DNA of 64,000 bases from Clostridia bacterium. GTDB taxonomy: Bacteria > Bacillota > Clostridia > TANB77 > CAG-508. The position numbers and the translations under genes are program-made. Below the pieces are notes generated by a model that was not told the origin of the DNA, ran no database searches, and saw only the letters and a list, made by a program, of their open reading frames with translations. Location: NCBI GenBank assembly GCA_022793875.1, contig JAAWDR010000030.1:2869-66868 (forward strand). The letters are read 5' to 3'. Positions 2,088 through 50,341 of this stretch are shown here, piece by piece (position 1 is the first letter of the stretch; the number at the start of each line of letters is the position of its first letter).

Positions 2088-2666
2088 TTAAATTTTCTTA
2101 ACTTCTTTTAATGCCATTTCTAATGCTTTCATGTTACCTTCAATAACTTCTGGTTTTTTAGCAAATTTATGTTTAAATGAACCTTTCATATCTTCTAGAA
2201 ATGCCTCATCTGTCATAATTCCACTTACTTTTACTATTGCTGCAAGCATTGGTGTATTTGGAAAATATTTTCCAAGTGTTTCTACTGATATTTTTCTTGC
2301 ATCTATAGTGTAAATGTTACCATTGTATCCTTTTAAAACTTTTTTTAGATATTCTGGTGATTTTGTTGTATTAATTATAATTGCCCCTGTTTCTTTTAAT
2401 CCTTCTGTAACTGGGACTGATTCTAAAAGAGTGTCATCAACTACAATTACGTAATCTGGTTCATATATGTTGCTGTGAACTGTTATTGGTTTATCACTAA
2501 TTCTGTTATATGCTGTAATCGGTGCTCCCATTCTCTCTGGCCCATATTCTGGAAATCCTTGAATATATTTTCCAGTATTAAATGCTGCATCGGCTAGTAA
2601 TAATGATGCTGTTTTTGCTCCTTGTCCTCCTCTACCATGCCATCTGATTTCTATTAAGTTGTTCAT
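2088..2666 (-). CDS. porC: oxidoreductase gamma subunit
   Basis: 192 aa. N-terminal IEIRWHGRGGQGAKTAS motif is typical of POR gamma. First gene of the operon. Confidence 0.85.
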   Translation of the reverse strand: MNNLIEIRWHGRGGQGAKTASLLLADAAFNTGKYIQGFPEYGPERMGAPITAYNRISDKPITVHSNIYEPDYVIVVDDTLLESVPVTEGLKETGAIIINTTKSPEYLKKVLKGYNGNIYTIDARKISVETLGKYFPNTPMLAAIVKVSGIMTDEAFLEDMKGSFKHKFAKKPEVIEGNMKALEMALKEVKKI

Positions 2667-3029
2667 GTATATGCCTCCTTTTTTATTACGGTTGTACCGT
2701 GTTTGTTATGTGTTTAGTATATTCTAAATATATGTTGATGTCAAGGGATTTTTTTGTACAATTGGGTCGAAAAAATTTTTGAAAGATTTTTTCTATTTTT
2801 CATTATCTATTAATATTTACTAAAAAATTGTCGACTATTAAGATATTATGTAAAAAAAGTGATTAATTAAAAGGCTATTATTATTGTCTTAAAAAGAAAA
2901 AATATATATAATTAAAATAGTGTTGACATTGGTTTCAACAAAATATTAAATTGTATTAAAATGACATAAATGTCTATAGCATAAGTTATAGAAAAATGTG
3001 AAAAATAAACAAAAGAAGGAGAAAAGAAC

Positions 3030-4367
3030 GTGAAAAAATTTAAAAAGGGAACTAATGGGATAACATTAATCGCTTTAATAATAACAATAATAATTTTGAT
3101 ATTATTAGTAGGAATAACAATATCAAGTTTAACAGGAAGTGGATTATTTCAAAAAGCAGAAGATGCTGTAAAAGCAAGTGATAGAGCAAATGTAAAAGAG
3201 CAATTGAAATTAGCAGTAATGGCATCAATAAATGAAGATGGAAATATAGACAAAGATGAATTAAGAAAAGAATTAGAAAAGTTAAAAAATAGAGGTACAA
3301 TAGATAGTTATGAGCAAGGAGAAGAAGATTCGGAGATATTATATACTGCAACAAAAGGAAAAGATTTATATGAAATTAAAGAAAATAGAGAAGTAGAGAT
3401 AAAAGAAAATTATAATAAATTAGATGTAAAAGTAGGAGACTATGTAAATTACACACCAGATAAGCCAACATCAGAACAATTAACAGAATTAAATAGTGAA
3501 ATAAACAACTATTCAGGAAGTTCAGGGCAAAATTTAAGTCAGGCATCAGAAATGAAATGGAGAGTATTAGAAATAGATGAGAAGACTGGAAAACCAACAA
3601 AGTTAATAAGTGGAAAAGAAACAAATGAAAGCTTAAAATTATATGGAGCAAATGGATATAATAATGCAGTATATTTATTAAATAGAGCATGTGAAATATT
3701 ATACAGTAAAAATGGAATAGGCAAAGCAAGAAGTATAACGATAGAAGATTTGGAAGTACATTATAGTGAAGCAGGTAATAATGCAAGAGACACATATAAA
3801 TATAATAATAATACTGCAAATGGAAATAAATATGGAGATATAAGTAGATTTACAGGAAGCAATGCATATTATCCTAAAATATCATTAGAAGAGAACAATA
3901 TAGGAGTAAATACAATGCCATTAGATGAAAATAATAGAAATCCATTAAAAACTGATGGACTAGACATTAGTGAACAAGATAAAATATATACAGGAAATGG
4001 TCAAGCAAATACAAGTGGAATAACATTAAAGCAGACATATTATAGCTTAGGTTCATTATCAGATTTGTCAAAAGCATATGAAGAAAGTATATATTATGAG
4101 CTATTTCATAGTGCAATAAGTGTTTCACATTGGTTAGCATCTCGTAGTGTTATTACATGGGCAGGATATAGTTATTGTGATTTTCGTGCGCGTTATGTTA
4201 ATTATAGTCACCTTAGTGTTCGTAATTTATTTGGTTCTCTTTACTATAATGATGGTTATACAGATAGAATGAGACCAATAGTTTTACTAGAAAATGATAT
4301 TAAAATGGAATGTGAAGGAAAGTTTGAGGACAGTTTATATAGTATATGGAGTTTTGTGAATATATAA
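3030..4367 (+). CDS. prepilin-like N-terminus protein, paralog 1 (C-terminal WLASR...RPIV module)
   Basis: GTG start 8 nt after AAGGAG. N-terminus is MKKFKKGTNG|ITLIALIITIIILILLVGITISSLTG (G then hydrophobic helix, Ala not Glu at +5). Shares a 49-nt identical block with the 4506 gene. Confidence 0.75.
   Translation: MKKFKKGTNGITLIALIITIIILILLVGITISSLTGSGLFQKAEDAVKASDRANVKEQLKLAVMASINEDGNIDKDELRKELEKLKNRGTIDSYEQGEEDSEILYTATKGKDLYEIKENREVEIKENYNKLDVKVGDYVNYTPDKPTSEQLTELNSEINNYSGSSGQNLSQASEMKWRVLEIDEKTGKPTKLISGKETNESLKLYGANGYNNAVYLLNRACEILYSKNGIGKARSITIEDLEVHYSEAGNNARDTYKYNNNTANGNKYGDISRFTGSNAYYPKISLEENNIGVNTMPLDENNRNPLKTDGLDISEQDKIYTGNGQANTSGITLKQTYYSLGSLSDLSKAYEESIYYELFHSAISVSHWLASRSVITWAGYSYCDFRARYVNYSHLSVRNLFGSLYYNDGYTDRMRPIVLLENDIKMECEGKFEDSLYSIWSFVNI
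4128..4262 (+). other. candidate orphan DGR variable region (adenine-depleted patch)
   Basis: About 22% A over about 120 nt versus roughly 45% in the rest of the gene (hand count). Four CGT Arg codons here while flanking Arg codons are AGA. No matching TR in the window. Confidence 0.35.
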
Positions 4368-4505: not shown

Positions 4506-5075
4506 ATGGAAAAGTTCAAAAATGCTAATAGAGGTATAACATTAGTAGCATTAGTAATTACAATAATTATATTATTAATTTTAGCTGGTATATCAATATC
4601 AAGTTTAACAGGAAGTGGATTATTTCAAAAAGCAGAAGATGCAAGAACAGAATATAGAGAAGCTGAAAATAGAGAAAACTCAATACTAGGAGAATATGAA
4701 AATTACATTAATAATTTAGGAAATAATTTATCTGATGGAGATAAAATTGTACATTTTTCTATAGATGGAGTAGAGTACTCATGTGAAAAGGGAAAAAGAT
4801 GGAAAGATTTTGTTGATTATGAAGCGTATGGAGGAGATGAAGTAGTAGCTTATTTAGATACATCACATTTTGGTGGTGAACATGATGAGAATCAAAAAAT
4901 ATATTGGATAGATTGGAGTACTTTCGAAGGTGGTGCGATAAGTATGGTTGCTTATTTTGTTAAATTAGACGGGGAATATATTTATTCAAATTCAGAAATT
5001 GTTTCTGGAAAGTATATTATATCTGATGAAGTTACTTCAATTTATAATTATGGAAATTGTTATATAAAATTTTAA
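4506..5075 (+). CDS. prepilin-like N-terminus protein, paralog 2
   Basis: MEKFKNANRG|ITLVALVITIIILLILAGISISSLTGSGLFQKAEDA...ENSILGEYENYINNLGN. The first ~70 codons are near-identical to the DGR target 13848..15035. The C-terminus is unrelated. Confidence 0.75.
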   Translation: MEKFKNANRGITLVALVITIIILLILAGISISSLTGSGLFQKAEDARTEYREAENRENSILGEYENYINNLGNNLSDGDKIVHFSIDGVEYSCEKGKRWKDFVDYEAYGGDEVVAYLDTSHFGGEHDENQKIYWIDWSTFEGGAISMVAYFVKLDGEYIYSNSEIVSGKYIISDEVTSIYNYGNCYIKF

Positions 5076-5120: not shown

Positions 5121-5254
5121 TCTTTTTATATAGTAAAATTAAGATAGCCGTTCGAGCGAAGCGAGTTACGGATATCTTATACAAATGAACGATAGTGAAT
5201 TTGTAATCAAAAGAGAGATAAGTAATAGCGAATTTGTAACAATAAAAAATAAAT

Positions 5255-5312
5255 GAGGGCTGTCCCTTTTGGCTGATTTTTGTGCCAAAAAAGGGCGTCC
5301 CTATTGACACAG
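5255..5312 (+). repeat. Rep-1 element (GAGGGCTGTCCCTTTTGGCTGATTTTTGTGCCAAAAAAGGGCGTCCCTATTGACACAG)
   Basis: Homologous copies at 21993-22046 (+), 21909-21964 (-) and 58309-58376 (+). Ends 12 nt before the smc ATG. Confidence 0.8.
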
Positions 5313-5323: not shown

Positions 5324-8300
5324 ATGTATTTAAAAAGATTAGAATTACAAGGATTCAAATCCTTTGCAGATAAAACAATATTAGAACTAAGACCAGGAAT
5401 AACAACAGCAATTGGACCTAATGGTTCAGGGAAAAGCAATATATCAGATGCAATAAGATGGGTACTAGGGGAGCAAAGTATGAAGTCCCTAAGAGGAGCA
5501 AAATCTTTAGATGTTATATTTGCAGGAACGCAAAACAGAAAATCTTTAGGATTTGCAGAAGCATCTTTGGTGTTTGATAATAGTGATGGGGAATTGCCAA
5601 TTGAATATACAGAGGTAACAGTCACAAGAAAGATATATAGAAGTGGAGAAACAGGATATTATATAAATAAAGTTCCATGTAGATTAAAAGATGTATTAGA
5701 ATTGTTTATGGATACAGGGATTGGTAAAGATGGATATTCAATAATTGGACAAGGTAAAATTGATGAAATTCTAAGTAATAAATCAGAAGATAGAAGACAT
5801 ATTTTTGAAGAAGCTGCAGGAATTGTTAAATATAGAACAAGAAAAGAAGAGTCAGAGAAAAAGTTAGAGCATACAAAATTAAATCTTCTTAGAATAAATG
5901 ATATCTTATCTGAAATTGAAGGGAATTTAGAACCATTGCAAATACAAGCTGATAAAGCTAAAAAGTATTTGAATTTGAGAGAAGAATTAAAAAGTATTGA
6001 GATAGGATTATTTGTATACAATATAGAAAAATACAAAAAAGATTTACAAGAGTTGGTACAATCCATAGATGTAATGACATCTCAATGTAAAGATGAAGAA
6101 GAAAAATTAGAAACAGTAAAATCATTAAAAGAAGAACTAAAGACTAATATTGATAAAATTACAGAAGAGATTGAAAGTATGTCTAATATAGGGTTTGAAA
6201 GTAAAAAACAAATCGAAATATTAAATTCAGATATTAATGTAGCAAAAACAAAGATTGCAAATAATAATGAAAACAGTGAAAGATATGCAAAAGAAATTGA
6301 AGAACAAAATGCTAGAATTACAGAACTAAATGAAGAAATTGAGCAAAAAGAGAGTAAGAAAGATAATTTAAAGAAAAACAAAGAAAAGTTTGAGAATGAG
6401 TTAAAGGAAAAACAAGAAGAATTAGATAAATTAACACAAAAACTTTCTTCAAAAGAATTGGAAATTGAAGGATATAAGCAAACAGTAGAACAAAATACTG
6501 ATAAAAAATATGAGTTACAATCAGAAATTAATACACAAAATGTAAATTATCAAAACTATGAAAAAAGAGAAGCACAAATAAAACAAGAAATTCAAGTTAC
6601 AATTTCTGAATTAGATGGAACAAGACTTAATAAAGAAGATATTTATAAACAATTTACTGAAATTCAAAATAAGAAGAATAAAATTCAAAAATCACTAGAT
6701 GATGTAGCAAAACAAAGAGAAGAAGCAAGTAAAAAAATAAAATCTTATGAGAATGATATAAATAACTTAGCTGGTGAGATGAGAATAAAGGAGTCAAGAC
6801 TTAAATTTTTAATTGAAACAGAAAAAGAAAAAGAAGGATATATAAAAAGTGTTAAATCTTTATTGCAAGATTGTGAAAATGTAAAAGATCTAGGAAAAGG
6901 TATGCATGGAGTTTTAGCAAATATTATAGATGTTCCTGATGACTTAGAAACATCAATTGAAATGTGTTTAGGAGCAAGTCTTCAAAATATAGTAACAGAA
7001 ACTGAAGAAGATGCTAAAAAATTAGTTGAGCATCTAAGAAAAAACAATTTAGGAAGAGCATCATTTTTACCAATTTCATCAGTTAAAGGTAAAAAATTAG
7101 ACAAAATTAAAGGAAATGAAAAAGGTGTAATTGGTATTGCATCAGATTTAGTAAAATACAATAAAAAATATGAACAAATTATATTAAATTTACTTGGTAG
7201 GACAGTTATTGTTGATACAATGCAAACAGCTATTAAAGTAGCAAAACAAAATGGATACATATTCAGAATAGTAACAGTTGAAGGGGATTTAATAAATCCA
7301 TCAGGAGCAATAACAGGTGGTTCTGTTGCTAAGAAAACAGTAAACATACTGGGTAGAGGTAAAGAAATTGAAAAGCTAGAAAAAGAAATCAATAACTTAA
7401 AACAAAAAATTCAAAAACTACAAAATGACAAATTAAATTATGAAGAATCAATTGAAGGAATTTTAGAGTTATCAGCAAACTTAGAAAAAGAAATGCAAGA
7501 AATAGATATTACATATGCTACTGAAAAACAAAAGGTTATTTCAATTGATGAAAATATTGAAAAACTAGAAAAACGTTTAGCTAGATTAAAAGAAGAACAA
7601 CAAAGCCTTGAAAAACAAAAAGAAGAAGCAGTATCTTTAAAAGGAAACATACAAGTAGAAATAAATAAAATTGTTGAGCAAAATCAAGAATTATCAAAAG
7701 TTATAACAGAATTTGCTGAACTTAATAAAGATGACCAAAAATATATAGATGATTTAAATTTTGATATAATAAATTTAAAAATTTCTGTATCATCATTTGA
7801 TGAAAGTGAAGCTTCAATTGAAGAAATTAAAGAAAGAATTAATCAAGAATTAGAAAATACAAAAATAAGTATTGAAAATAAAAAGAACCAAATAGAGCAG
7901 ATTGCAATAGAGAATGAAAAGCTAGAAAAATCAATAAATGAAACATTACAAAAAATTGAAGAAATAAAAGCAGAAGTTCAAAACAGTAGTAATAAAATAG
8001 AAGAATTGAAACAACAAAGAACTGAAAAAAGTGAGACACTTTCAAAACAAGAAGATGAAATTACAGACAAATTCAAAGTAATTGAAGATTTAAAAGGTCA
8101 ACTTGTAAAATTAGATGTAAAGAAAACAAAGATAGAAGAAGATATTAATGAAATTTATAATAAGATGTGGGAAGAGTATGAACTTACACCAAATAATGTA
8201 GGAGAATACCAAAGACCAGAGAATGTTCAATTAACACAAAGAAGAGTAAATAGTCTAAGAAATGAAATTAAAGAACTTGGAAGTGTTAATGTAGATTCTA

Positions 8301-8872
8301 TAGAAGAATACAAAAACTTAAAAGATAGATATGACTTTATGAGTGAACAAAGACTTGATTTAGAAAATACAATGAGCAAACTTAGAAGTGTAATTTCTGA
8401 TATGACACAAATTATGAGAGAACAATTTAAGGAAAAATTTAAAGTAATAAATAAAAATTTTGGAGAAGTATTTGCTGAATTATTTGGTGGAGGAAAAGCA
8501 GAACTTATATTAGAAGATGAAAATAATATACTAGAATGTGGAATAGAAATTACAGTACAACCGCCAGGAAAAAAATTACAAAGCATGACATTGTTGTCAG
8601 GAGGAGAAAAGGCATTTACAGCAATAGCATTATTATTTGCAATTTTAAAAATAAACCCAGCACCTTTCTGCGTATTGGATGAGATTGAAGCTGCTCTTGA
8701 TGATGTTAATGTATTTAGATATGCTGAATATTTGAAAAAATTTGCTGAACATACACAATTTTTAGTAATTACTCATAGAAAAGGAACAATGGAAGTTGCT
8801 GATACTGTTTATGGTGTTACTATGGAGGAAAGCGGTATTTCTAAATTGTTGTCGATGAAAATGTCCCATTAG
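5324..8872 (+). CDS. smc: chromosome segregation protein SMC
   Basis: 1182 aa. N-terminal Walker A GPNGSGKSN, long coiled coils, hinge, and C-terminal LSGGEKA signature plus Walker B FCVLDEIEAALD. Confidence 0.97.
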   Translation: MYLKRLELQGFKSFADKTILELRPGITTAIGPNGSGKSNISDAIRWVLGEQSMKSLRGAKSLDVIFAGTQNRKSLGFAEASLVFDNSDGELPIEYTEVTVTRKIYRSGETGYYINKVPCRLKDVLELFMDTGIGKDGYSIIGQGKIDEILSNKSEDRRHIFEEAAGIVKYRTRKEESEKKLEHTKLNLLRINDILSEIEGNLEPLQIQADKAKKYLNLREELKSIEIGLFVYNIEKYKKDLQELVQSIDVMTSQCKDEEEKLETVKSLKEELKTNIDKITEEIESMSNIGFESKKQIEILNSDINVAKTKIANNNENSERYAKEIEEQNARITELNEEIEQKESKKDNLKKNKEKFENELKEKQEELDKLTQKLSSKELEIEGYKQTVEQNTDKKYELQSEINTQNVNYQNYEKREAQIKQEIQVTISELDGTRLNKEDIYKQFTEIQNKKNKIQKSLDDVAKQREEASKKIKSYENDINNLAGEMRIKESRLKFLIETEKEKEGYIKSVKSLLQDCENVKDLGKGMHGVLANIIDVPDDLETSIEMCLGASLQNIVTETEEDAKKLVEHLRKNNLGRASFLPISSVKGKKLDKIKGNEKGVIGIASDLVKYNKKYEQIILNLLGRTVIVDTMQTAIKVAKQNGYIFRIVTVEGDLINPSGAITGGSVAKKTVNILGRGKEIEKLEKEINNLKQKIQKLQNDKLNYEESIEGILELSANLEKEMQEIDITYATEKQKVISIDENIEKLEKRLARLKEEQQSLEKQKEEAVSLKGNIQVEINKIVEQNQELSKVITEFAELNKDDQKYIDDLNFDIINLKISVSSFDESEASIEEIKERINQELENTKISIENKKNQIEQIAIENEKLEKSINETLQKIEEIKAEVQNSSNKIEELKQQRTEKSETLSKQEDEITDKFKVIEDLKGQLVKLDVKKTKIEEDINEIYNKMWEEYELTPNNVGEYQRPENVQLTQRRVNSLRNEIKELGSVNVDSIEEYKNLKDRYDFMSEQRLDLENTMSKLRSVISDMTQIMREQFKEKFKVINKNFGEVFAELFGGGKAELILEDENNILECGIEITVQPPGKKLQSMTLLSGGEKAFTAIALLFAILKINPAPFCVLDEIEAALDDVNVFRYAEYLKKFAEHTQFLVITHRKGTMEVADTVYGVTMEESGISKLLSMKMSH

Positions 8873-8916
8873 GGACGTTTCTTTTTGGGACATTTTGTCC
8901 CATTGGGGACACATCT
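8858..8916 (+). repeat. Rep-2 element (AAAATGTCCCATTAGGGACGTTTCTTTTTGGGACATTTTGTCCCATTGGGGACACATCT)
   Basis: Three near-identical copies (8858, 42468, 48513). This copy contains the last 4 codons and the TAG stop of smc. Confidence 0.85.
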
Positions 8917-8942
8917 TATATTGAGAATAGAAATTTTAGGCG

Positions 8943-8982
8943 AAAAAAAACGATGGAATTTAGTTATTTTCCATCGTTTTTT
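8943..8982. terminator. bidirectional terminator between smc and the small minus-strand ORF
   Basis: AACGATGGA...TCCATCGTT stem flanked by an A-run and a T-run. A diverged copy lies at 9325-9362. Confidence 0.7.
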
Positions 8983-13847: not shown

Positions 13848-15035
13848 ATGAAAAAGCAAAACAAAGGTATAACACTTGTAGCATTAGTAATTACAATTAT
13901 CATATTATTAATTTTAGCGGGAATCTCAATAAGTGCATTAACAGGAAGTGGATTATTCCAAAAGGCAGGAGATGCCAAAAATAGTTATGAAGAAGCAGAA
14001 AGAAGAGAAAATTCAATATTAGGAGAATATGAAAACTATATTGATAATTTAGGAAATGGTGGAAGTACAGGAAGTTTACCATCAAATGCAGAAACAACAC
14101 CATATTTACCAGACTCAAGTAGTAAAATAATAGAAAATTCAAATTTAGAAACAGGATTAGTAGTAGCAGATAAAAATAATAATGAATGGGTATGGATAGT
14201 AGTGCCAAAATCAGTAACAGCAAGTGCAACAACAGATTTAGAAATAGAAAATGCATTACAAACATATGCAACAGATTATAGAAGTTCTTGGACAGATGAA
14301 TGGTATGAAGGATGTGGATTAACAGAAGCACAATATAATGAAAATAAAAGTAAAATGTTGCAAAGTATAAAAGCAAATGGAGGATTTTGGATAAGTAGAT
14401 ATGAAGCAGGAATAGAAGGAAGTGTGCAAAATCCATCTTTAGCAAGAACAGAGCCAGGAGAACTAACAACATCGTCACCAAAGGCAGTAAGTAAGCCAGA
14501 CCATATACCATATAATTGGGTAACATGTAGTCAAGCACAAAATCTAGCAAGTCAAATGAGTCCAGAGACAACAAAAACAAGTAGTTTATTATTTGGAATA
14601 CAATGGGATTTAGTGTGTAAGTACCTAGAGGGAAAAGACGGATTAACAACAGCAGATATAAATGAAGATAGTTCAAGTTGGGGAAATTATAGTAATAATT
14701 CATTAAATATAACAAGTGCAAAAGCTATGGGAGCAGAATTCAATACATCAACATATCAACTAGGAGAGTGGCAAAATGTTACTGAGAAACCAGCAAATAA
14801 ACTAAGTCTATTAACAACAGGAGCATCAATAGGAACTAAGAAGATGAATATATATAATTTTGCAAGTAATGAAGCAGAATGTACATTAGAAAAGGCGACC
14901 AGCAGCAGCGATCCATGTAGCATTAGGGGAGGCATTTACAGCCTTACAGGTTCCGACTATCCAGCTTCTGCTCGCAACGACTATGATCCTTCTAGCGGTA
15001 ACGACGTCATTGGTTTGCGCGTTTCACTTTATTAA
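13848..15035 (+). CDS. DGR variable (target) protein: prepilin-like N-terminus plus FGE/C-type-lectin-fold domain
   Basis: N-terminus MKKQNKG|ITLVALVITIIILLILAGISISALTG. SUMF1/FGE-like motifs GFWISRYEA, NWVTCSQAQNLA, LLFGIQWDLVCKYL, NIYNFASNEAECT, SIRGG, VIGLRVS. The last 47 codons match the TR. Confidence 0.9.
   Translation: MKKQNKGITLVALVITIIILLILAGISISALTGSGLFQKAGDAKNSYEEAERRENSILGEYENYIDNLGNGGSTGSLPSNAETTPYLPDSSSKIIENSNLETGLVVADKNNNEWVWIVVPKSVTASATTDLEIENALQTYATDYRSSWTDEWYEGCGLTEAQYNENKSKMLQSIKANGGFWISRYEAGIEGSVQNPSLARTEPGELTTSSPKAVSKPDHIPYNWVTCSQAQNLASQMSPETTKTSSLLFGIQWDLVCKYLEGKDGLTTADINEDSSSWGNYSNNSLNITSAKAMGAEFNTSTYQLGEWQNVTEKPANKLSLLTTGASIGTKKMNIYNFASNEAECTLEKATSSSDPCSIRGGIYSLTGSDYPASARNDYDPSSGNDVIGLRVSLY
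14892..15034 (+). other. DGR variable region (VR)
   Basis: Gap-free alignment to 16536-16678 (offset 1644). Mismatches fall almost exclusively at TR adenines. Confidence 0.9.
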
Positions 15036-15294: not shown

Positions 15295-15549
15295 ATGGCA
15301 TTTAGTAAAATGATAGAATTATTACAAAAGAAAGATGAAGGAAAAATAATACTAGTAAATGCAGGAGCATTTTATATAGCAAGAGGAAAAGATGCAGAAC
15401 TAAATACACAAAGAATATATCTAAGAATAATGAAAAATAACAAATGGATAGATGAAAGAAAATTCAGAATAGTAATGGAGCAAATATATGAAATAGGAAA
15501 AATACTAGGAGGACTATATAAACACTATGCCAAAAACAATCCGAAATGA
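15295..15549 (+). CDS. DGR accessory protein candidate (MutS-domain-I-like N-terminus, Avd-like C-terminus)
   Basis: 84 aa. GGAGG lies 9 nt upstream. KIILVNAGAFYIARGKDAE resembles the MutS N-terminal GDFYE..G.DA motif. C-terminal EQIYEIGKILGGLYKHY resembles an Avd helix. Overlaps the RT start by 23 nt. Confidence 0.55.
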   Translation: MAFSKMIELLQKKDEGKIILVNAGAFYIARGKDAELNTQRIYLRIMKNNKWIDERKFRIVMEQIYEIGKILGGLYKHYAKNNPK

Positions 15550-16462
15550 ATTTGAAAAGCATTTAACATATGAAAAATTAATGGAAGCACACAAAAAATC
15601 AAAAAAAGGAAAAGGATACAGAAAAGAAATAATAGAATTTAACTTAAAACAAGAAGAATATATAATATGGTTATTAGAACAATTAAAAACACAGAAATAC
15701 AAACATGGGGGATATACAACATTTTATGTAACAGAACCAAAATTAAGAAAAATAGAAAAATCAAGATACATAGATAGAATAGTACATAGATGGGTAGTAG
15801 ATAACTTTTTAGAACCAGCATTTGTACCACAATTTGTAAATACATCATTTGCATGTCTAAAAAATAAAGGAATGCACAAAGCATGTTTATATGTTCAAAA
15901 CACAATGAAGCACTGTAAAAACATATGGAATGAGCATTATATACTAAAAATGGATGTATCAAAATATTTTGATACTATAGATAAAAAAATATTATTAAAA
16001 ATTATAGAAAAGAAAATAAAAGATAAAAAGCTATTATGGTTATTAAATGAAATAGATCAATTTATAAAACACAAATTACATATAAAATATTATTGTAGAT
16101 ATTTAGATGACAGTATAGTAATAGTAAAAACAAAGCAAGAAGCAAAAGATGCATTAATAAAAATACAAAAATATTTAAAAGAAAATTTAGAGCTAGAATT
16201 AAATAAAAAAACACAAATATTTAAAAATAAACAAGGAGTAAACTTTTGTGGATATAAAATAAATGAATATAGACTAAAAATAAGAGACAAAGGAAAAAGA
16301 AAATTAAAGAAAAAAGTAAAAAAATTAAAAGAACAAATAAAATTAGGGAAAATTACAAGCAAAGAAGCGCATAAATATTTAGCAGGCCATATGGGATATA
16401 TAAAATATGCAAATACAAGAAACTTAGAAAATAAATTATTTTATTTAGAAAGTGAACAATAA
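15527..16462 (+). CDS. DGR-type reverse transcriptase
   Basis: RT motifs FYVTEPKLRKIEKSRYIDRIVHRWV (1), SFACLKNKGMHKA (2), ILKMDVSKYFDTID (3), YCRYLDDSIVIV (5), NFCGYKI (7). The cognate TR/VR pair is adjacent. Confidence 0.9.
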   Translation: MPKTIRNEFEKHLTYEKLMEAHKKSKKGKGYRKEIIEFNLKQEEYIIWLLEQLKTQKYKHGGYTTFYVTEPKLRKIEKSRYIDRIVHRWVVDNFLEPAFVPQFVNTSFACLKNKGMHKACLYVQNTMKHCKNIWNEHYILKMDVSKYFDTIDKKILLKIIEKKIKDKKLLWLLNEIDQFIKHKLHIKYYCRYLDDSIVIVKTKQEAKDALIKIQKYLKENLELELNKKTQIFKNKQGVNFCGYKINEYRLKIRDKGKRKLKKKVKKLKEQIKLGKITSKEAHKYLAGHMGYIKYANTRNLENKLFYLESEQ

Positions 16463-16535: not shown

Positions 16536-16678
16536 AAAACGACCAACAGCAACAATCCATGTAGCAATAGGGGAGGCAATTACAACAATACAGGTTCCAA
16601 CAATCCAGCTTCTAACCGCAACAACAATGATCCTTCTAACAGTAACGACAACATTGGTTTACGCGTTTCACTCTAATA
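16536..16678 (+). other. DGR template repeat (TR)
   Basis: AAY-rich. In the VR frame it reads TTNSNNPCSNRGGNYNNTGSNNPASNRNNNDPSNSNDNIGLRVSL*. Lies 74 nt downstream of the RT stop. Confidence 0.9.
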
Positions 16679-16820
16679 TTATTTCAGATTATATATTTTA
16701 AGGAATATATACAGTAAAAATATTAGTATTAAAGAGATTTATTCCTTCCTAAATAGGTAAAAATGAATCAGTAGTGTTTGTATTTGTAAATTTGTTAATC
16801 GAATATATGAATAGTACGAA

Positions 16821-38991: not shown

Positions 38992-39105
38992 GAGACAAGT
39001 GGGACAGTCCAAATTTGTCTCACTTAGAGTGTCTAAAAAAATAGAAAAATGTCGAATAAACAAAAAGTGAGACAAATTTGGACTGTCCCAACTGTCTCAA
39101 AGGAG
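38992..39105. repeat. Rep-3 inverted pair (GAGACAAATTTGGACTGTCCCAACTGTCTCAAAGGAG units)
   Basis: Left unit 38992-39023 is the reverse complement of the right unit 39068-39099. A third unit lies at 53270-53307. The right unit runs into the RBS of the 39114 gene. Confidence 0.8.
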
Positions 39106-39980: not shown

Positions 39981-39985
39981 AAAAA

Positions 39986-40061: not shown

Positions 40062-40069
40062 TTTTTAAT

Positions 40070-42352
40070 TTATTGATTCAAATTATTTCTTCCTTTTAAA
40101 TCAACAATTATAGAATCACCATTATCAAAGAAAGTATTTGAACTTGTTGTATTTGTTTGATTTATATTTCTTTGAAGTAATTCATTATTATAATTATTAT
40201 GACTTGTAAAAGAATTTGTATATTTTTCAAAATCAAATGTTTTTGTTTTCTTAGGTTCTTTATATTTTGAATCTAAGTAATTAAGTTTTCCTTCACCAAC
40301 CATTAATCTACCACCAATATCCCTAATTTTAAATGTACAGTTTCTTTGAGATAAAGTTTGAAGTTTTCCAGGCTTAAAGTAAGGTACAAATTTCCATTCA
40401 ACATTACCATGTTTTGAATCATATTTCATCTTATCAAAATCAATAGTATTACCAAATGTCCACTCTCTTCTTGTACCAAATTCTTGACTCCACCATTCTA
40501 ATTCTTGAATTGTAGCTCCACCCATAAATATTTTACTAGCACAGTTTGATAAAATAGTCTGTTTAAAGTTTTGCTTAGAGTTAGCAGGTTCTAATTGTTC
40601 AAGGTTTTGAGCAGAAATTGTAGTACCGATTTTATATTTTCTATACATTGTAAATATTGGTTCTGTTGCTTTACAAATGAAATCAGGAAATTCGTCTATG
40701 TATAAGAAGTTTGGAACTCTAGAATTTTCATTTCCAGGTCTTCTTAAAACTGCATTTTGCATTGAAATTAAGAAGAATAATCCAAATGCTTTATGGCTAG
40801 AAGCACCTAAATCTCCACGTCTTGTACATACAAAAGTAATATCAGCATTTGCAAGCATGTTATCAAAGTTTATATTATTGTTTCTATTGCATAGTATTGT
40901 TTTTACTCCAGGTAATCTTAATAGTCTGTCTAGTTGACTAATTGCAACATCTATATATTTTTCAGTAGTTTCTTTTCCTGAACCATTTTTATAAAAGTTC
41001 TTTTTAAAATATGCTAATTGTACATTGTATTTTTCTTTTAGTTCTTCATTATGAGCTAAAATTTCACACATTTTTTCAACTAATTCAAAGTTTGTGAACA
41101 TTTTTAACATATCTTCTAGATTAGGTAACTTTCCATCATTCATTCTAGGATACATTTCTTTAAGTAATATAGCAACATTTTCAATTGCTTGAATTACAAC
41201 TGATTCTCTATAGGCTTCTTCTGATTCATTATTAGATATATCAAACATTGTTTTTAATACAGAAGATATTGTAATTGCTATTTTATTTGAATCATCATAA
41301 ACAAAAGGATTTAGTCCAATAGAGTTACTATCTGATGGATCTATAATATTATAAGATAATCCAAAGTTTTTACAAACATTTATCATATGGTCTGAGATTT
41401 CTCTGTCAGGTGATAACACTGTTATACCACAATTTTTATAAGTAATTCCTCCTGAAGTATCTAATATCATTTTTTTCATATATCCTTTATAAACATCTTC
41501 ACTACCATAAGTTGGTGATAACATGTTTAAATTAAAGTTGTTATTTAAATATTCATTGTCATAAGGAGCATTTAATACAGCAATTCCAGTTTTTAAAGCT
41601 GTAAATCCCATTTCTTTTGAAACTTCTCTAAAGAAGAATTTTCTATCTAAATCTCTGGCTATTAATGGTTCATAAATTAGTGATGTTTTACCAGAACCAG
41701 AACCACCACATACAAACATTGATTGGTATCTAGATTCTTCTGGAATTATTATAGATTTTGCTGTTTCAAAGTCTTGGCATAAGTAAACTTCGCAAGTATA
41801 TGGACCATGACCTTTTGATTTATCTGATAAATCTATACCACCATAATCCCAAATAGAACGAACCATGTCTTTAGTATCATTAACACCAAAATATAAAAAT
41901 TTGAATATTTTTGGTATTATGAAAGCTGGAAATAGTATTGTTAATGATGTTAAAGCAGGTCTTACTAATTCTGAGAAGTCAGTAATTAAATCTACATATC
42001 CAGGGTTAAATATTAATAATAACCATACCCCTAAATTAAGCCATTGTGTAAACATTGATATTGCGATAACACTTAATCCAATTACAAAAGTATAAAAGAG
42101 TGCGACTTTTGTGGTTCTTGTTTTTGCAAATTCAGATGGGCCTGAAAATAAAAATGCAAATACTGGACAAGCAAGTGCAAATGTATATTTTAAAGGTCCC
42201 CAATATGAGTATGATATTCCTGTGAATAACATTAATAAAATTTCTACTATTCTATCAACAGCAAAATATATTGTTAATAGAGTTAATATATATGTTGCAA
42301 AGGTATTTCTAGTAGTACCTAGCTTTTTTAAAAAATTATCTATTATTTTCAT
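40070..42352 (-). CDS. VirD4/TraG/TraD-like type IV coupling-protein-family ATPase (orphan)
   Basis: N-terminal TM helices, Walker A FVCGGSGSGKTS, Walker-B-like NFLYIDEFPDF, SAQNLEQL, SNCASKIFMGG. No relaxase or T4SS genes adjacent. Confidence 0.75.
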   Translation of the reverse strand: MKIIDNFLKKLGTTRNTFATYILTLLTIYFAVDRIVEILLMLFTGISYSYWGPLKYTFALACPVFAFLFSGPSEFAKTRTTKVALFYTFVIGLSVIAISMFTQWLNLGVWLLLIFNPGYVDLITDFSELVRPALTSLTILFPAFIIPKIFKFLYFGVNDTKDMVRSIWDYGGIDLSDKSKGHGPYTCEVYLCQDFETAKSIIIPEESRYQSMFVCGGSGSGKTSLIYEPLIARDLDRKFFFREVSKEMGFTALKTGIAVLNAPYDNEYLNNNFNLNMLSPTYGSEDVYKGYMKKMILDTSGGITYKNCGITVLSPDREISDHMINVCKNFGLSYNIIDPSDSNSIGLNPFVYDDSNKIAITISSVLKTMFDISNNESEEAYRESVVIQAIENVAILLKEMYPRMNDGKLPNLEDMLKMFTNFELVEKMCEILAHNEELKEKYNVQLAYFKKNFYKNGSGKETTEKYIDVAISQLDRLLRLPGVKTILCNRNNNINFDNMLANADITFVCTRRGDLGASSHKAFGLFFLISMQNAVLRRPGNENSRVPNFLYIDEFPDFICKATEPIFTMYRKYKIGTTISAQNLEQLEPANSKQNFKQTILSNCASKIFMGGATIQELEWWSQEFGTRREWTFGNTIDFDKMKYDSKHGNVEWKFVPYFKPGKLQTLSQRNCTFKIRDIGGRLMVGEGKLNYLDSKYKEPKKTKTFDFEKYTNSFTSHNNYNNELLQRNINQTNTTSSNTFFDNGDSIIVDLKGRNNLNQ

Positions 42353-43682: not shown

Positions 43683-45524
43683 TTATTCTACAGTAACAGA
43701 TTTAGCTAAATTTCTAGGTTTATCAACATCTAATCCCTTTTCTTTTGAGATATAATAAGCCAGTAATTGAAGAGGAATAATTGATAATATTGGAGATACA
43801 AATTGATTAGTATCTGGAATATTAATAACAACATTAAACATGTCATTATCTAGCTTTTGATTTGTTATAACTAAAGTTTTTGCACCACGAGTAATAACTT
43901 CTTGAATATTACTAATAGTTTTCTTTATTAAATCTTTATCTGTTAAGATACTAATAACAGTAATTCCATTTTCAATTAAAGCAATAGGACCATGTTTTAA
44001 TTCGCCAGCTGCATAGCTTTCAGAGTGAATATAAGAAATTTCTTTTAGTTTTAAAGAACCTTCTTTACTTACAGTTTCATCAATTCCTCGACCTAAGAAG
44101 AATATATCTTTTTCTTGATAAATTTGTTTAGCAAAATTTTTTATTTGATTATTGCATGTTAATGTCTCTTCAATTTTTTTAGGCAAATCTAAAATATCAC
44201 TTTTTAGTTTATTTAGAATATCTTTATCTTTTTTCTCCAAAACTTCAGCAAAATATATAGCTAAAATATTAATTAATATAACTTGAGAAGTATAAGCTTT
44301 GGTTGAGGCTACAGCTATTTCTGGTCCAGCATGTGTATAAATAGAGTAATCTGCTTCTCTAGTTATAGAGCTTCCAATAACATTAGTAATTGCAATTGTT
44401 TTAGAGCCTTGTTCTTTTGAAAGTTTTAATGCTGCAATAGTGTCAGCTGTTTCTCCAGATTGAGAGATAAAAATGCATAAAGTTTTTTCATCTAATATAG
44501 GATTTCTATATCTGAATTCTGATGCAATATCTACTTCAACAGGAATTCTACAAAGTTTTTCAATTGTATTTTTTCCACTTAATCCAGCATGCATTGCTGT
44601 ACCACATGCAACTATATAAATTTTGTTTAAATTTTGTAAATATTCTTTTGTTAAGTTAAGTTCTTCAAATTCACATTTGGAATTTAAATTAATTCTAGAA
44701 CCTATAGTTTCTCTAATTGCTTTAGGTTGTTCATAAATTTCCTTAAGCATGAAATCATCATATCCATCTTTTTCAGCACTTGAAGAATTCCATTCAATAT
44801 TTTGAACTTTTTTATTAATTTTATCTAAATTTTTATCAAAAAACTCAATATTATTTCTTGTTAATAATGCAAATTCAAAATCATTTAGAAGATAGAAATT
44901 TCTAGTATAAGAAAGTATAGCTGGTATATCAGAAGATAAATATTTTTCATCTTCGCATGTACCAATAACTAAAGGACTATCTTTTCTTACAACAATCATG
45001 TTATCAGTGTAAAGAGATGAAATTACTTCTATTGCAAAACTTCCTTTTAAATCCATACAAGCATTTTTTACAGCTCTTAGATATTTTTGTTTGTCATTTT
45101 TTTCGTCTTTTGTAAAATAGTAGTGTATCAAATTTGGTATAACTTCTGTATCTGTTTGAGAATAAAAGGTATAACCATTTTCAGTTAAAAATTTTCTTAA
45201 TTCATTGTAATTTTCAATAATTCCATTATGTACTACACTAAAAGTTTTTGAATTATCTTGATGCGGATGTGAATTTTCTTTTGAAGGTACTCCATGAGTT
45301 GCCCATCTTGTATGTGCAATACCTATTGTTCCTTCTAATTCATTAATTCCATCTAAATTTGATAAATTTTTTACTCTTCCTTTATCTTTCATTAAAGATA
45401 AGCCTTTTTTTTCTATTGTTGAAATTCCAGCTGAGTCATATCCTCTGTATTCCAATCTATTTAAACCTGCCAAAAGTATAGGGCAAGCTTTTTTTGTTCC
45501 TATGTAACCTACAATTCCACACAT
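43683..45524 (-). CDS. glmS: glutamine--fructose-6-phosphate aminotransferase
   Basis: MCGIVGYIG N-terminal nucleophile, two SIS domains, C-terminal KPRNLAKSVTVE. Confidence 0.97.
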   Translation of the reverse strand: MCGIVGYIGTKKACPILLAGLNRLEYRGYDSAGISTIEKKGLSLMKDKGRVKNLSNLDGINELEGTIGIAHTRWATHGVPSKENSHPHQDNSKTFSVVHNGIIENYNELRKFLTENGYTFYSQTDTEVIPNLIHYYFTKDEKNDKQKYLRAVKNACMDLKGSFAIEVISSLYTDNMIVVRKDSPLVIGTCEDEKYLSSDIPAILSYTRNFYLLNDFEFALLTRNNIEFFDKNLDKINKKVQNIEWNSSSAEKDGYDDFMLKEIYEQPKAIRETIGSRINLNSKCEFEELNLTKEYLQNLNKIYIVACGTAMHAGLSGKNTIEKLCRIPVEVDIASEFRYRNPILDEKTLCIFISQSGETADTIAALKLSKEQGSKTIAITNVIGSSITREADYSIYTHAGPEIAVASTKAYTSQVILINILAIYFAEVLEKKDKDILNKLKSDILDLPKKIEETLTCNNQIKNFAKQIYQEKDIFFLGRGIDETVSKEGSLKLKEISYIHSESYAAGELKHGPIALIENGITVISILTDKDLIKKTISNIQEVITRGAKTLVITNQKLDNDMFNVVINIPDTNQFVSPILSIIPLQLLAYYISKEKGLDVDKPRNLAKSVTVE

Positions 45525-46727: not shown

Positions 46728-48527
46728 ATGTTTAATATAGAAGAAGAACTAAAAAAGTTACCAGGAAAACCTGGAGTATATGTAATGAGAGACAAAGATG
46801 ACAATATCATATATGTAGGAAAAGCAATATCATTAAAAAATAGAGTAAGGTCATACTTTAGAAAAACAAACAAGACAGAAAGAATAAAAAAGATGGTTAG
46901 CTTAATAGATCACTTTGAATATATTGTAGTTGATAATGAAGCAGAAGCATTAATATTAGAATGTAATTTAATAAAGAAAAACAGACCTAAATTTAATGTT
47001 TTATTAAAAGATGACAAAACATATCCATATATTAAAATAGATGTAAAATCAGAATACCCAAATGTATTTATAACAAGGAAATTAGTAAATGATGGAGCAA
47101 AATACTTTGGACCATATGCAAATCCAGGGGCAGCAAAAGAAATGTTAGATTTTATAAAACAAAAGTACAAAATACGTCAATGTAAAAATTTTAAATCAAC
47201 AACAAGAGCATGCCTAAATTATCATATAAAAAGATGTTTAGCACCATGTGTTGGATATGTAACACCAGAAGAATACAGAAAACAAATAGATGAAATAATA
47301 GACTTATTAGAAGGAAAAACAGACAAAATAATAAAAGAATTAGAAATAGAAATGCAAAAAGCATCTGAAAGCTTAGATTTTGAAAAAGCAGCAGAATTAA
47401 GGGATAGGAGATTAGCAATAGAAAGAGTATCAGAGAAACAAAAAGTATCTAACATATCAGAAAATAATATAGATGTAATAGGATTATATAAATCAGAAAT
47501 AGAAGTATGTATTGAAATCTTTTTTGTACGTGGAAGCAAAATGATAGGAAGAGAGCACTACTTTTTTAAAGAACTAAAAGATATGGAAGATAGCGAAATT
47601 CTAACAGGATTTATAAAACAATACTATTTAGACAATCCAAATATTCCAAGCAAAATAATGTTAAGAGAAGAATTACCTGAAAAAGACATAATAGAGCAAT
47701 GGTTATCTACAATTTTAGGAAAAAAAGTGGAATTGAAGAGTCCAAAAAAAGGTGAAAAGTTAAGATTTGTTGAAATGGCAGAAAATAATGCAAAAGTAAC
47801 ATTAGAAAATAAAGAAAAAGATAAATCAGAAATATTAATGGAGCTAAAAGAAGTTTTAAAAATGGACAAATTACCACGAAAAATAGAGACTTATGATATA
47901 TCAAATATATCTGGACAATTTATGGTAGCAGCAATGTGTGTAATGGAAGATGGAATTATAAAAAAGAATTTGTCAAGAAGATTTAAAATAAAAACAGTAC
48001 TAACACAAGATGACCCAAAATGTATGGAAGAAGTGGTAACAAGAAGACTTGCACATTCATTAGAAAGTGCAACAGAACAAGAAAAAAAAGGATTTGGAAA
48101 ATTGCCTGATGTAATATTTGCAGATGGAGGGATAACACAAATAAGAGCAATAAAGACAGCAATATCTAAATACGAAGGACAAAAATTATATATAAGGGTA
48201 TTTGGAATGGTAAAAAATGATAAGCATCAAACAAGAGCATTAATAGATGAAAATAGACAAGAGATACCAATATCAGAAAACTTAATGAACTTGATAACTA
48301 AGTTTCAAGATACAGTACATGATACAGCAATTAGCTATCACAGAAAGTTAAGAGAACAATCAATTACACATTCTGAATTAGATGATATTAAGGGAATTGG
48401 TGAGGCAAAGAAGAAGGCTTTATTGAAGCACTTTGGTAGTGTAGAGAAAATTAAGCATGCTACAAAAGAAGAGTTGATGCAAGTAAAGGGCATAACAGAA
48501 GAATTGGCAGAGAAAATGTCCCAATAG
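46728..48527 (+). CDS. uvrC: excinuclease ABC subunit C
   Basis: GIY-YIG (PGVYVMRD..IIYVGKA), UVR domain, RNase-H-like domain, C-terminal (HhH)2. Confidence 0.97.
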   Translation: MFNIEEELKKLPGKPGVYVMRDKDDNIIYVGKAISLKNRVRSYFRKTNKTERIKKMVSLIDHFEYIVVDNEAEALILECNLIKKNRPKFNVLLKDDKTYPYIKIDVKSEYPNVFITRKLVNDGAKYFGPYANPGAAKEMLDFIKQKYKIRQCKNFKSTTRACLNYHIKRCLAPCVGYVTPEEYRKQIDEIIDLLEGKTDKIIKELEIEMQKASESLDFEKAAELRDRRLAIERVSEKQKVSNISENNIDVIGLYKSEIEVCIEIFFVRGSKMIGREHYFFKELKDMEDSEILTGFIKQYYLDNPNIPSKIMLREELPEKDIIEQWLSTILGKKVELKSPKKGEKLRFVEMAENNAKVTLENKEKDKSEILMELKEVLKMDKLPRKIETYDISNISGQFMVAAMCVMEDGIIKKNLSRRFKIKTVLTQDDPKCMEEVVTRRLAHSLESATEQEKKGFGKLPDVIFADGGITQIRAIKTAISKYEGQKLYIRVFGMVKNDKHQTRALIDENRQEIPISENLMNLITKFQDTVHDTAISYHRKLREQSITHSELDDIKGIGEAKKKALLKHFGSVEKIKHATKEELMQVKGITEELAEKMSQ

Positions 48528-48743: not shown

Positions 48744-48776
48744 ATGTCCTTTTAGGGACTGTCCTCAAAAGGACAT
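48744..48776. repeat. Rep-4 palindrome ATGTCCTTTTAGGGACTGTCCTCAAAAGGACAT
   Basis: Sister copy at 62815-62844. Abuts the stop codon of the minus-strand gene 48776..50341. Confidence 0.75.
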
Positions 48777-50341
48777 CACTTTGATACCAAATATAAATTA
48801 TTTCCAACCTCATAACGAGAATCTGGAGCAACATAAATTTTTTCAAAATTCTCAAAATCAGTATTATCTTTAATTTCTTGAATAACAGCATCATTATCCA
48901 AATAATTCTTAATAGAAAGGATAAAAGAATCTTCATTATTCAAGCTTTCATCATTAACAATATATTGCATTTCATCATTAAACATATTTATAATCAAAGT
49001 TTTTTCATAAATCATCATTTCAGGAACACTTTGCATATGGTTAAAGAAATTATCGTAAACATATACAAAAGATTTGTCTTTATTTTTTTCAGCTATATCT
49101 AAGCACTTTTGATAATCTTTATATAAGAAGATAGGCTCAGAGAATACAAAACCAACAATTACTAAAGCTAAAGAGATAAAACTAATTATAACATTTCTAA
49201 ATTTAATTTTTTCTAATAAAGCATCTAGTACTAAAATAAATGTAATAGCAACAAAAGGAATGATTGGCATTATATATCTTAATTCTTGGAATGATGTCAT
49301 TTTTACTGATATCACAAAGAAGAATATACTAGGTATAGTAAATAATGCAATAACAGTTTTTTCTCTACTTTTCTTAAATAGATATCCAACAGCAATAGCA
49401 AATAATACTAGAACACTAATTATTAATATTGTATTATTTTCATTTATAGAAAAGGCATAAGCTAAGTGTTTTATGTATTGCCAGAAGTGTTCAAGATATC
49501 CTGTATTTCCTAAATTTGATAATCCTCTACTTGAAAATAGTAAGTGTTTTATACATGGTACAAATAGTAAAATTCCTACAACTGCATAAATAATATGATT
49601 AATAAAATATTTTCTTATAATTATTTTATCTTGTTTTGTCCTAATCATTTTTATTAGTATTATTAAAAATACAAATATTGCAAATACTGCAAAGAAATAT
49701 TGTGTAAGAAATCCTAGAACAGTAGTTATACCTAAAATAATTGACATTTTCTTATCCATTTTAAAATCATTTTTATATATTTTTAAAGTTAAATAAAAAT
49801 ATAGTAATACGAAAAATGTTAATAGCATGTACATTCTTTGGAATAGAACCATTGAAATTGTTCCCATAGAAAGTCCATAAAATAGGATACTTGGAAATGC
49901 TAAATTTTCTTTGTCCAGTATTTTTAGTATTTTCTTGATTACAAAGCAACTTAAAATAAATGCTATTATATTTACAACAAATACACTATATAGTGAGAAT
50001 GCACCACCAAATAATATAGTAGAAAAATGTACAAGTGAATAGAATACTGGTGGATGATTATCCCATGCTTGATTTATATATACTGATGCTAAATTGAAGT
50101 AGTTTATTGGTTTTAGGCTCATATAATCTGTTACATAAGAGCGAGATAGCCATACAGGATGGTCGCTATCAACATATTGTGACATTAGTCCATTTACATT
50201 ACTTACTGAAGATGATAGTGTATATCCTTCATCTTCATGTAGTCCTACCTTTTGTGTTTGATAATAAAAGATTATTCCACTTATTATGGCTATTAAAATT
50301 ATTATTAATATGTTTCTGATTTTTTCTTTATTTTTTAACAT
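48776..50341 (-). CDS. GT39/ArnT-like membrane glycosyltransferase candidate
   Basis: 521 aa, multi-TM, with LHEDEGYT in the first loop (DE motif of GT-C enzymes). Confidence 0.55.
   Translation of the reverse strand: MLKNKEKIRNILIIILIAIISGIIFYYQTQKVGLHEDEGYTLSSSVSNVNGLMSQYVDSDHPVWLSRSYVTDYMSLKPINYFNLASVYINQAWDNHPPVFYSLVHFSTILFGGAFSLYSVFVVNIIAFILSCFVIKKILKILDKENLAFPSILFYGLSMGTISMVLFQRMYMLLTFFVLLYFYLTLKIYKNDFKMDKKMSIILGITTVLGFLTQYFFAVFAIFVFLIILIKMIRTKQDKIIIRKYFINHIIYAVVGILLFVPCIKHLLFSSRGLSNLGNTGYLEHFWQYIKHLAYAFSINENNTILIISVLVLFAIAVGYLFKKSREKTVIALFTIPSIFFFVISVKMTSFQELRYIMPIIPFVAITFILVLDALLEKIKFRNVIISFISLALVIVGFVFSEPIFLYKDYQKCLDIAEKNKDKSFVYVYDNFFNHMQSVPEMMIYEKTLIINMFNDEMQYIVNDESLNNEDSFILSIKNYLDNDAVIQEIKDNTDFENFEKIYVAPDSRYEVGNNLYLVSK

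Follow-up and report, generated by a model that had tools for sequence, protein, structure and literature searches.

We describe here Rep-2, a 58-nt hairpin repeat that supplies the last codons and the stop codons of smc and uvrC in a bacterium of the class Clostridia. The repeat lies in a 64,000-nt stretch of contig JAAWDR010000030.1 (GenBank assembly GCA_022793875.1, forward-strand positions 2,869 to 66,868), hereafter the window, which has a GC content of ~26%. Three near-identical copies, all on the + strand, are present: copy 1 at the 3' end of smc (8860-8917), copy 2 in an intergenic region (42470-42527) and copy 3 at the 3' end of uvrC (48515-48572), in agreement with an original prediction made by a model from the letters of the DNA. 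Searching the window with a 57-mer returned an exact match at 8858-8914 and a match with one mismatch at 48513-48569, against a shuffled expectation of 0, while copy 2 (42468-42526 in the earlier coordinates) diverges from the 57-mer at more positions than copy 3. The motif GTCCC-N4-GGGAC occurs six times in the window, paired inside each of the three copies, and is expected 0 times.

In copy 1, two GTCCC-N4-GGGAC hairpins follow each other in the same orientation, separated by a GGGAC half-site, and the first loop, ATTA, together with the following G creates the TAG stop of smc (8870-8872). In copy 3 the first loop is AATA, and with the following G it likewise forms the TAG stop of uvrC (48525-48527). 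Copy 2 lies between divergent genes (40070..42352 on the - strand and ~42628 on the + strand), with no open reading frame (ORF) running into it, and its central spacer is inverted (AAAAT). The predicted hairpin plan stands, with a central spacer one base shorter than first drawn; the TTTT/AAAA loop swap reported for copy 2 is real and is more accurately an exact inversion of a 5-nt spacer, GGGAC-ATTTT-GTCCC versus GGGAC-AAAAT-GTCCC. For copy 2, contigs carrying an identical neighboring protein either come from the same strain (L046) or break before the repeat (L047), and yielded no empty site. The minus-strand gene beside it encodes a TraG-D_C domain (precomputed Pfam match), which suggests a remnant of a conjugative element.

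The smc ORF (5324..8872, + strand, 1182 aa) ends in AAA ATG TCC CAT TAG (…KMSH*) and the uvrC ORF (46728..48527, + strand, 599 aa) in AAA ATG TCC CAA TAG (…KMSQ*), as originally read, and in both genes the TAG is assembled from the last two loop bases of hairpin 1 and the first G of GGGAC. The last three codons and stop of smc (ATG TCC CAT TAG) derive from the element, the preceding AAA (Lys) being ancestral, and uvrC owes its last codons and stop (ATG TCC CAA TAG) to the element as well. Among 120 close SMC homologues, tails are almost always …SMKLK, …SMKLKQ, …SMKLNK or similar, and …SMKMSH is confined to the SMC of the window. Repeat-free smc loci end in ATG AAG TTA AAA CAA TAA (L041) or ATG AAA TTG AAT AAA TAA (L044), with a terminator (in L041) or a spacer directly 3' of the stop. 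In the window, TTGAGAATAG at 8921..8930 (+), 3 nt past the element, aligns by eye with TTG AAT AAA TAA of L044 and is probably a relic of the original smc last codons and stop, pushed downstream by the insertion. Farther downstream, a stem-loop followed by a T-run (CGATGGAA…TTCCATCG TTTTTT, 8951..8982, +) is likely the original smc terminator, and because it lies beyond the element, Rep-2 is placed inside the smc 3' untranslated region (UTR).

At uvrC the repeat-free locus L035 ends in …AEQIMK*, and UvrC tails beyond …VKGITEKIAE are hypervariable across the clade; …KMS(H/Q)* is common to UvrC relatives at ≥92% identity, plus one at 89%. The region downstream of copy 3 showed no convincing similarity to the empty site in L035 that would mark a relic. 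Several clade UvrC tails are translated related repeats, and the uvrC 3' ends of relatives carry a decayed Rep-2 (L032, 4770-4832), a perfect inverted doublet of ~100 nt entered by both convergent genes (L049, 2370-2465) and tandem 39-nt units (L050, 2375-2460). The uvrC 3' end is a recurrent landing place of REP-like families (REP, repetitive extragenic palindrome). Only ~2-4 C-terminal residues have been exchanged in these proteins, and their lengths are nearly unchanged. Because repeat-free orthologues end differently, none of them in KMS(H/Q), the KMSH and KMSQ tails come from the repeat, and the proposal that the element replaced the 3' ends of both genes holds. The opposing possibility, that these residues are ancestral and the likeness of the two gene ends coincidental or convergent, is close to untenable: besides the differing tails and the existence of empty sites, the identity between copies 1 and 3 continues for 45 nt past the stop codon, and nothing was found in its favor.

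A pattern search (GTCCC-N4-GGGAC-N10-GGGAC-N5-GTCCC-N4-GGGAC) of one genome per species across 185,579 species, of the kind the original prediction had proposed, returned 31 stretches from only three species-level metagenome-assembled genomes (MAGs) of uncultured Clostridia, with ~29 matches in CAOKJC01, 5 in CAOJKK01 and 2 in CANRBK01. Plasmids and viral contigs were also scanned and gave no Rep-2 match; carriage on mobile replicons is thus not indicated. Across forty distinct copies the element extends over -3..+55 from the first G of GTCCC, which sets its length at 58 nt in place of the 59 nt first proposed, with the consensus AAT GTCCC ATTG GGGAC GTTTCTTTTT GGGAC ATTTT GTCCC AtnG GGGAC ACATCTT. 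Because the search pattern specified all five GTCCC/GGGAC pentamers, the stems are invariant by construction; the spacers and flanks are strongly conserved and both 4-nt loops are variable. The two hairpins are direct repeats of a single unit, T-GTCCC-N4-GGGAC-NNN-TCTT, arranged as a head-to-tail doublet with 5-bp stems, and in some copies (L019, L022, L029 and L030) a third unit follows at the same 34-nt period. A dinucleotide CT is conserved 4 nt after each hairpin, at +19/+20 (38/40 and 38/40 copies) and +53/+54 (33/40 and 38/40). The leading AAT at -3..-1 pairs with ATT at +30..+32 and belongs to the element, since it is kept in seven of the nine sense copies that do not use TAA as a stop. 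No Rfam family reached the gathering threshold over any copy in the whole window, and around copy 1 there was no match at E≤5 apart from sub-threshold hits, the best at 18.7 bits (E 0.53).

Copies 1 and 3 are predicted to fold, as DNA or RNA, into a 10-11 bp stem formed by AAAATGTCCC and GGGACATTTT plus hairpin 2, with z scores of ~-5 (DNA and RNA range ~-5.5 to -2.9). The long predicted stem pairs the intervening half-site and not the second hairpin unit. The central GTCCC had been proposed to pair with either neighbor in mutually exclusive hairpins; these alternatives are possible in the sequence, but for copies 1 and 3 the minimum-energy prediction is the 10-11 bp stem plus hairpin 2 just described. 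The AAAAT spacer replaces ATTTT in three of the 40 copies (window copy 2, L002 and L026), a change that would be expected if the hairpin forms in single-stranded DNA. Two perfect 14-bp palindromes set 34 bp apart, with invariant half-sites, could also be taken for an operator array bound by a dimeric regulator or nucleoid protein. We regard this as very improbable, as the copies sit at gene 3' ends and within operons and not at promoters, occur by the dozen beside functionally unrelated genes, conserve AAT, GTTTCTTTTT and ACATCTT beyond the needs of a simple operator, and flank a transposase gene in the manner set out below.

The placement of Rep-2 relative to genes is regular. All copies lie at gene boundaries or between genes, and in 23 of the 40 the stop codon of the same-strand upstream gene touches or overlaps the element. 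Expressed as the 0-based offset of the first base of the codon from the first G of GTCCC, the stop is a TAA at -4 (T-AA-T-GTCCC) in 12 copies, lies at -6 in one and at -2 in one, is a TAG at +7 with loops ATTA, AATA or ACTA in six, a TAG at +6 with loop ATAG in two, and in one copy is reached by read-through to the hairpin 2 TAG at +41. All copies with a TAG-forming first loop (8/8) are read into by an ORF, and the consensus loop ATTG is found where the ORF had already stopped. Twelve of the 40 copies are inverted: 1-5 nt separate their left end from the Shine-Dalgarno site of the following gene, and the preceding gene, where this could be read, stops 5-12 nt beyond the final GGGAC, near the right end of the element. 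Co-directional genes with no repeat between them are a median of ~100 nt apart, so uniform insertion would place only a few percent of copies this near to stops, and we rejected compact intergenic spacers as a sufficient cause of stop adjacency. We also rejected strand specificity of the IS608 kind: relative to local GC skew, 25 copies are in positive and 15 in negative orientation.

Such proximity to stop codons raises the possibility that Rep-2 is an RNA-level cis element, an intrinsic terminator or attenuator, a 3'-end stabilizer or a ribosome-stalling hairpin, selected at gene ends, its link to a transposase being incidental. The RNA folds are strong (-27 to -29 kcal/mol, z ~-5), hairpin 1 with its AAA/UUU extension followed by CUUUUU (GUUUCUUUUU) scores as terminator-like, more than half of the copies abut a stop, and E. 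coli REPs within 15 nt of a stop lower translation of the upstream gene, according to work cited in PMC12306157. Against this, 12 of the 40 copies run antisense to the genes beside them, and copy 2 lies between divergent genes; many sense copies occur within operon-like gene pairs, 26-93 nt ahead of the next start; smc keeps its own terminator downstream of the element; and the stems, invariant because the pentamers were fixed by the search pattern, provide no covariation backing. This explanation also fails to account for identical 58-mers at unrelated loci or for the inverted copies that flank the transposase gene in at least seven lineages. We therefore consider it improbable as the origin of the element. 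RNA-level side effects are likely, and a role of this kind would more plausibly be secondary than the reason why Rep-2 exists.

The gene consistently associated with Rep-2 is found in relatives of the window. At locus L024 (CAOKJC01), a 259-aa ORF (2344..3123, - strand) is bracketed by two inverted Rep-2 copies and encodes a protein with a Pfam Y1_Tnp match of 58.6 bits (cutoff 23). Its best NCBIfam match is REP_Tyr_transpos at 69.1 bits, compared with only 18.7 bits for IS200. In 47 homologues H60-x-H62 and Y119-x3-N123-P124 are invariant (H60-V-H62 and Y119-IHQ-N123-P124), and Y-x3-NP is the signature of the REP-associated tyrosine transposase (RAYT) class (PMC6006769). By fold, an AlphaFold model (predicted local distance difference test score 87.4) is closest in the PDB to 4ER8 (E=4e-7), the complex of E. 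coli TnpA-REP with a REP hairpin, followed by the IS608 and ISDra2 transposases of the IS200/IS605 family. Residues 140-259 are predicted to be helical in the model, and the protein gave only weak HTH_26 and HTH_3 matches (E 0.03-0.06) and no Bac_DnaA_C match.

Only one RAYT type was found among the loci examined, and its surroundings are conserved. The neighborhood mreB–mtaB–small ORF–RAYT–radA–disA is constant from 100% to 53% RAYT identity (homologues at 84, 81, 69, 67 and 53%), and L018, from a second species, has a 50%-identical homologue in the same repeat-flanked arrangement. The upstream flanking copy of Rep-2 lies in the orientation of the gene and meets the TAA of the small ORF, and the downstream copy, which is inverted, meets the Shine-Dalgarno site of radA. 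These inverted flanks are full in L024, L018, L036/37, L038 and L048, partly decayed in L039 and degenerate in L040, a gradual decay with distance. Many RAYT contigs are ~1 kb long, as would be expected if assemblies break at the flanking repeats. L031, the closest relative of the window in the scan, is ~93% identical over smc, has the same smc insertion and belongs to a MAG that carries the RAYT. The flanks and the synteny are the REPtron architecture, in which a domesticated single-copy Y1 transposase is flanked by a genome-dispersed repeat family (described in PMC6006769, PMC5581495 and PMC3733652).

Beside the RAYT gene, radA is split at the same place in four assemblies (L024 at ~1733-1760 on the minus strand, L036 at ~5262-5275, L038 and L039), reading …CGG AAT TAA TAA TGA GG… before continuing in another frame, whereas L018 and L040 have an unbroken gene. 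The split represents a conserved frameshift or else a pseudogene common to these assemblies.

Small, non-coding, dispersed elements with loosely inverted ends (ATGTCCC… and …GGGACACAT) might alternatively be miniature inverted-repeat transposable elements (MITEs) moved through their terminal inverted repeats by a DDE-type insertion sequence. The junctions and the interior make this unlikely to a high degree. Target-site duplications are visible at 0 of 40 junctions, the interior consists of two direct hairpin units with a modular 34-nt period, sometimes three, no DDE transposase was seen adjoining any copy, and the Y1 transposase is the only gene consistently associated with the repeat.

We conclude that Rep-2 is a new family of an already known kind of element, found in a small group of uncultured gut Clostridia. 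With good though not full confidence, we regard it as a lineage-specific repeat of the REP or TIR (terminal inverted repeat) type within a REPtron-like system, whose single-copy, vertically inherited Y1 (HUH) transposase of RAYT/TIRYT type would mobilize the hairpins. What can be seen directly is the association with a RAYT-type enzyme, the dispersed near-identical copies, the filled and empty sites at smc and uvrC, and the donation of stop codons. The earlier reading of the effect on the two genes was thus correct, and the element can now in addition be identified as a REP-type repeat tied to a RAYT-like transposase.

Like the REP/BIME–RAYT REPtrons of E. coli, Pseudomonas and Stenotrophomonas, Rep-2 is short and palindromic and has dozens of copies, which for the most part lie directly 3' of ORFs and are enriched near stop codons, with a single-copy, vertically inherited Y1/HUH gene flanked by inverted repeat copies, an enzyme whose best structural match is 4ER8, and a CT by each hairpin, as at known cleavage sites. 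In contrast to these systems, it lacks the 5' GTAG/GTGG (or CGTC) tag, having AAT at -3..-1 and a stem that starts with GTCCC; its stems are only 5-6 bp and invariant (by the search pattern); its host belongs to a low-GC Clostridia lineage; and its 259-aa enzyme has a predicted helical, possibly HTH-like (helix-turn-helix) C-terminal extension and scores below the REP_Tyr_transpos cutoff. Unlike a REPIN, the doublet is head-to-tail with an extra half-site, not head-to-head or tail-to-tail, and its units have the same loop (ATTG) and flanks. Unlike canonical REPs, Rep-2 is fused to stop codons. Membership in the CGTC-tagged REP superfamily was considered and rejected: the reverse strand does read A-CGTC-CCCAATGGGAC, but this CGTC lies within the stem and is not an unpaired tag, and the stem and loop dimensions are unlike those of published families (PMC3733652). 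Our search of the REP/RAYT literature found no Firmicutes or Clostridia REP family listed.

Other systems share parts of this design. With the IS200/IS605 family and PATEs the system has in common the Y1 HUH catalytic fold and hairpin-built DNA ends recognized as single strands. Its transposase gene differs from IS200/IS605 in being syntenic across species and not multi-copy or mobile, in its low IS200 profile score (18.7 bits, as above), and in the absence of a strict target tetranucleotide (the left flank is variable beyond AAT) and of a strict strand orientation. Rickettsia palindromic elements, Neisseria Correia elements and intragenic REPs in repair genes are likewise palindromic repeats tolerated in ORFs, where they add amino acids (PMC3733652), and uvr and recombination genes are among the reported hosts of intragenic repeats (PMC3733652). 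Unlike them, Rep-2 touches only the last 2-4 codons and supplies the stop, with no in-frame internal insertion.

Several observations weigh against the REPtron-like interpretation. Mobility is inferred from copy number, shared sequence, and filled and empty sites in genomes that are ~85-93% identical, not from near-isogenic strains. A tblastn search of the window found no RAYT gene, and the link rests on its relatives. The 69-bit NCBIfam REP_Tyr_transpos match falls under the curated cutoff of 80, and in a PDB sequence search with the RAYT the 4ER8 match was not significant (E=0.88), so that the fold comparison alone is informative. The element has neither a GTAG nor a CGTC tag, its two hairpins run head-to-tail, an arrangement reported to be rare for REPs, and its orientation is not strand-specific (25:15 by GC skew), unlike that of IS608-type elements. 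Finally, no demonstrated target rule accounts for the exact seating of the left end on stop codons.

The closest parallel for the untagged flanks is the TIRtron (Di Nocera et al. 2013, PMC3733652), in which a RAYT-like TIRYT gene is flanked by inverted non-GTAG repeats. TIRs flanking TIRYT genes carry GGGGWSAS (PMC3733652), which the right end of Rep-2, GGGGACAC, fits in copies with a second loop ending in G, at the RAYT-proximal end; TIR families are moderately abundant and occur as dimers or clusters (PMC3733652). The predicted helical C-terminal extension of the Rep-2 enzyme, with its weak HTH matches, may be a further likeness. Quentin et al. 2018 (PMC6006769) equate TIRYT with TnpA-Y1 subclass 2.1, or RAYT group 1, long proteins with a C-terminal HTH, and group 1 has been reported in Clostridia (PMC5581495). 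No REP-like hairpins were found beside subclass 2.1 genes in that study (PMC6006769), whereas the flanks of the Rep-2 RAYT are clear hairpins that are also dispersed through the genome. It is conceivable, if somewhat doubtful, that Rep-2 and the sister GGGAC palindromes described below are the missing cognate repeats of this HTH-bearing class, adapted to stop codons, and that the tight placement at stop codons and Shine-Dalgarno sites reflects a targeting rule or a selected translational function and not tolerance. If true, the left end (AA after a T) and the free loops would offer a stop in all three frames with at most one mutation, and in these gut Clostridia the system would be systematically altering the C-terminal residues and 3' UTRs of housekeeping genes.

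The REPtron-like interpretation leads to a model, based on TnpA-REP of E. coli, Stenotrophomonas and Marinomonas, in which Rep-2 is most likely mobilized as single-stranded hairpins by the transposase, and loop mutations make the stops. Hairpins would form in single-stranded DNA, and the transposase would recognize the GTCCC/GGGAC stems and cut and rejoin nearby, the candidate site being the CT 4 nt past each hairpin; known RAYTs cut at a CT 5' or 3' of the REP (PMC8266576). Cutting and rejoining would copy the doublet into new sites, and copies would persist where harm is small, at the extreme 3' end of an ORF or in the gap that separates a stop codon from the Shine-Dalgarno site that follows. 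After insertion into the last codons, the ORF would enter the element and end through one of three stops: a TAA built from a flanking T and the first AA of the element, or a TAG created by a one-base loop variant, from ATTG to ATTA in one frame or to ATAG in another. Two to four C-terminal residues would thereby become …MSH*, …MSQ* or …VP*. Such insertions would survive because the element offers, or easily acquires, a stop, and insertions in the opposite orientation would be tolerated only in the gap from a stop to a Shine-Dalgarno site, since two frames of the bottom strand are open. Once transcribed, hairpins that abut a stop would probably alter the mRNA as a secondary effect, through 3'-end protection, weak termination or ribosome stalling.

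The window also contains sister repeats. A palindromic family, TGTGTCAA(A/T)AGGGACG(T/C)CCTTTTTTGACACA, with a core (…TAGGGACG…CTTTTTTG…) that resembles Rep-2, occurs at 2043-2085, 5255-5311, 21910-22046 and 58306-58376, partly as inverted doublets. Its CAATAGGGAC contains the TAG with which ORF 20673..21920 ends, the other arm directly adjoins the Shine-Dalgarno site of ORF 22050..22700, and one copy is located just upstream of the smc Shine-Dalgarno site. Three GGGAC-centered palindromes are present as well: TGTCCTTTTAGGGACTGTCCTCAAAAGGACA at 48742-48785 and 62804-62847, abutting the TGA of ORF 48776..50341 (-); GAGACAAGTGGGACAGTCCAAATTTGTCTC at 38992-39025, 39065-39098 and 53266-53299; and one of ~80 nt with GGGGACGGGTC (39983-40063), located between convergent genes. 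A separate repeat of ~77 nt, ATTAAGATAGCCGTTCGAGCRAAGCGAGTTACGGATATCTTAT…, is found near Rep-2 copies (window 5136-5212, L004 5255-5328, L019 4690-4765 and L024 2227-2315); in L024 it is inserted within the Rep-2 copy downstream of the RAYT, and it may be another small element that targets these repeats.

Other features of the window were noted as well. The only Rfam matches are an RT-14 RNA motif (97 bits, 16671-16817, +), for which a reverse transcriptase partner would be expected, directly downstream of a 311-aa ORF (15527..16462), and a glmS ribozyme (77 bits, 45573-45721, -) upstream of a 613-aa glmS-like ORF (43683..45524). An apparent local duplication of ~380 nt (8977-9010/9357-9390 and 9138-9277/9477-9616, 80-97% identical) carries a terminator-like hairpin and the end of a short minus-strand ORF. 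Four ORFs have similar 5' regions (3042-3248, 4518-4724, 13851-14057 and 33587-33658) that encode a hydrophobic N-terminus, …KGITLVALVITIIILLILAG…, which looks like a type IV pilin or pseudopilin leader.

For annotation, these results mean that in this lineage a repeat provides the stop codon and final residues of conserved genes (smc, uvrC and, in relatives, at least seven more), and because the repeat supplies gene ends, the C-terminal differences between orthologues and many contig breaks have a simple cause. That 58% of copies touch a stop despite median spacers of ~100 nt sharpens the known and unexplained tendency of REPs to lie near stop codons and makes it easier to test. With a substrate of 58 nt, an enzyme of 259 aa and candidate cleavage sites at CT, the system is compact and suits tests of how such enzymes recognize DNA. 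Rep-2 extends clear REP-plus-RAYT systems to uncultured low-GC Clostridia, with a repeat that has no GTAG tag and an enzyme that resembles a class for which cognate hairpin repeats had not previously been found.

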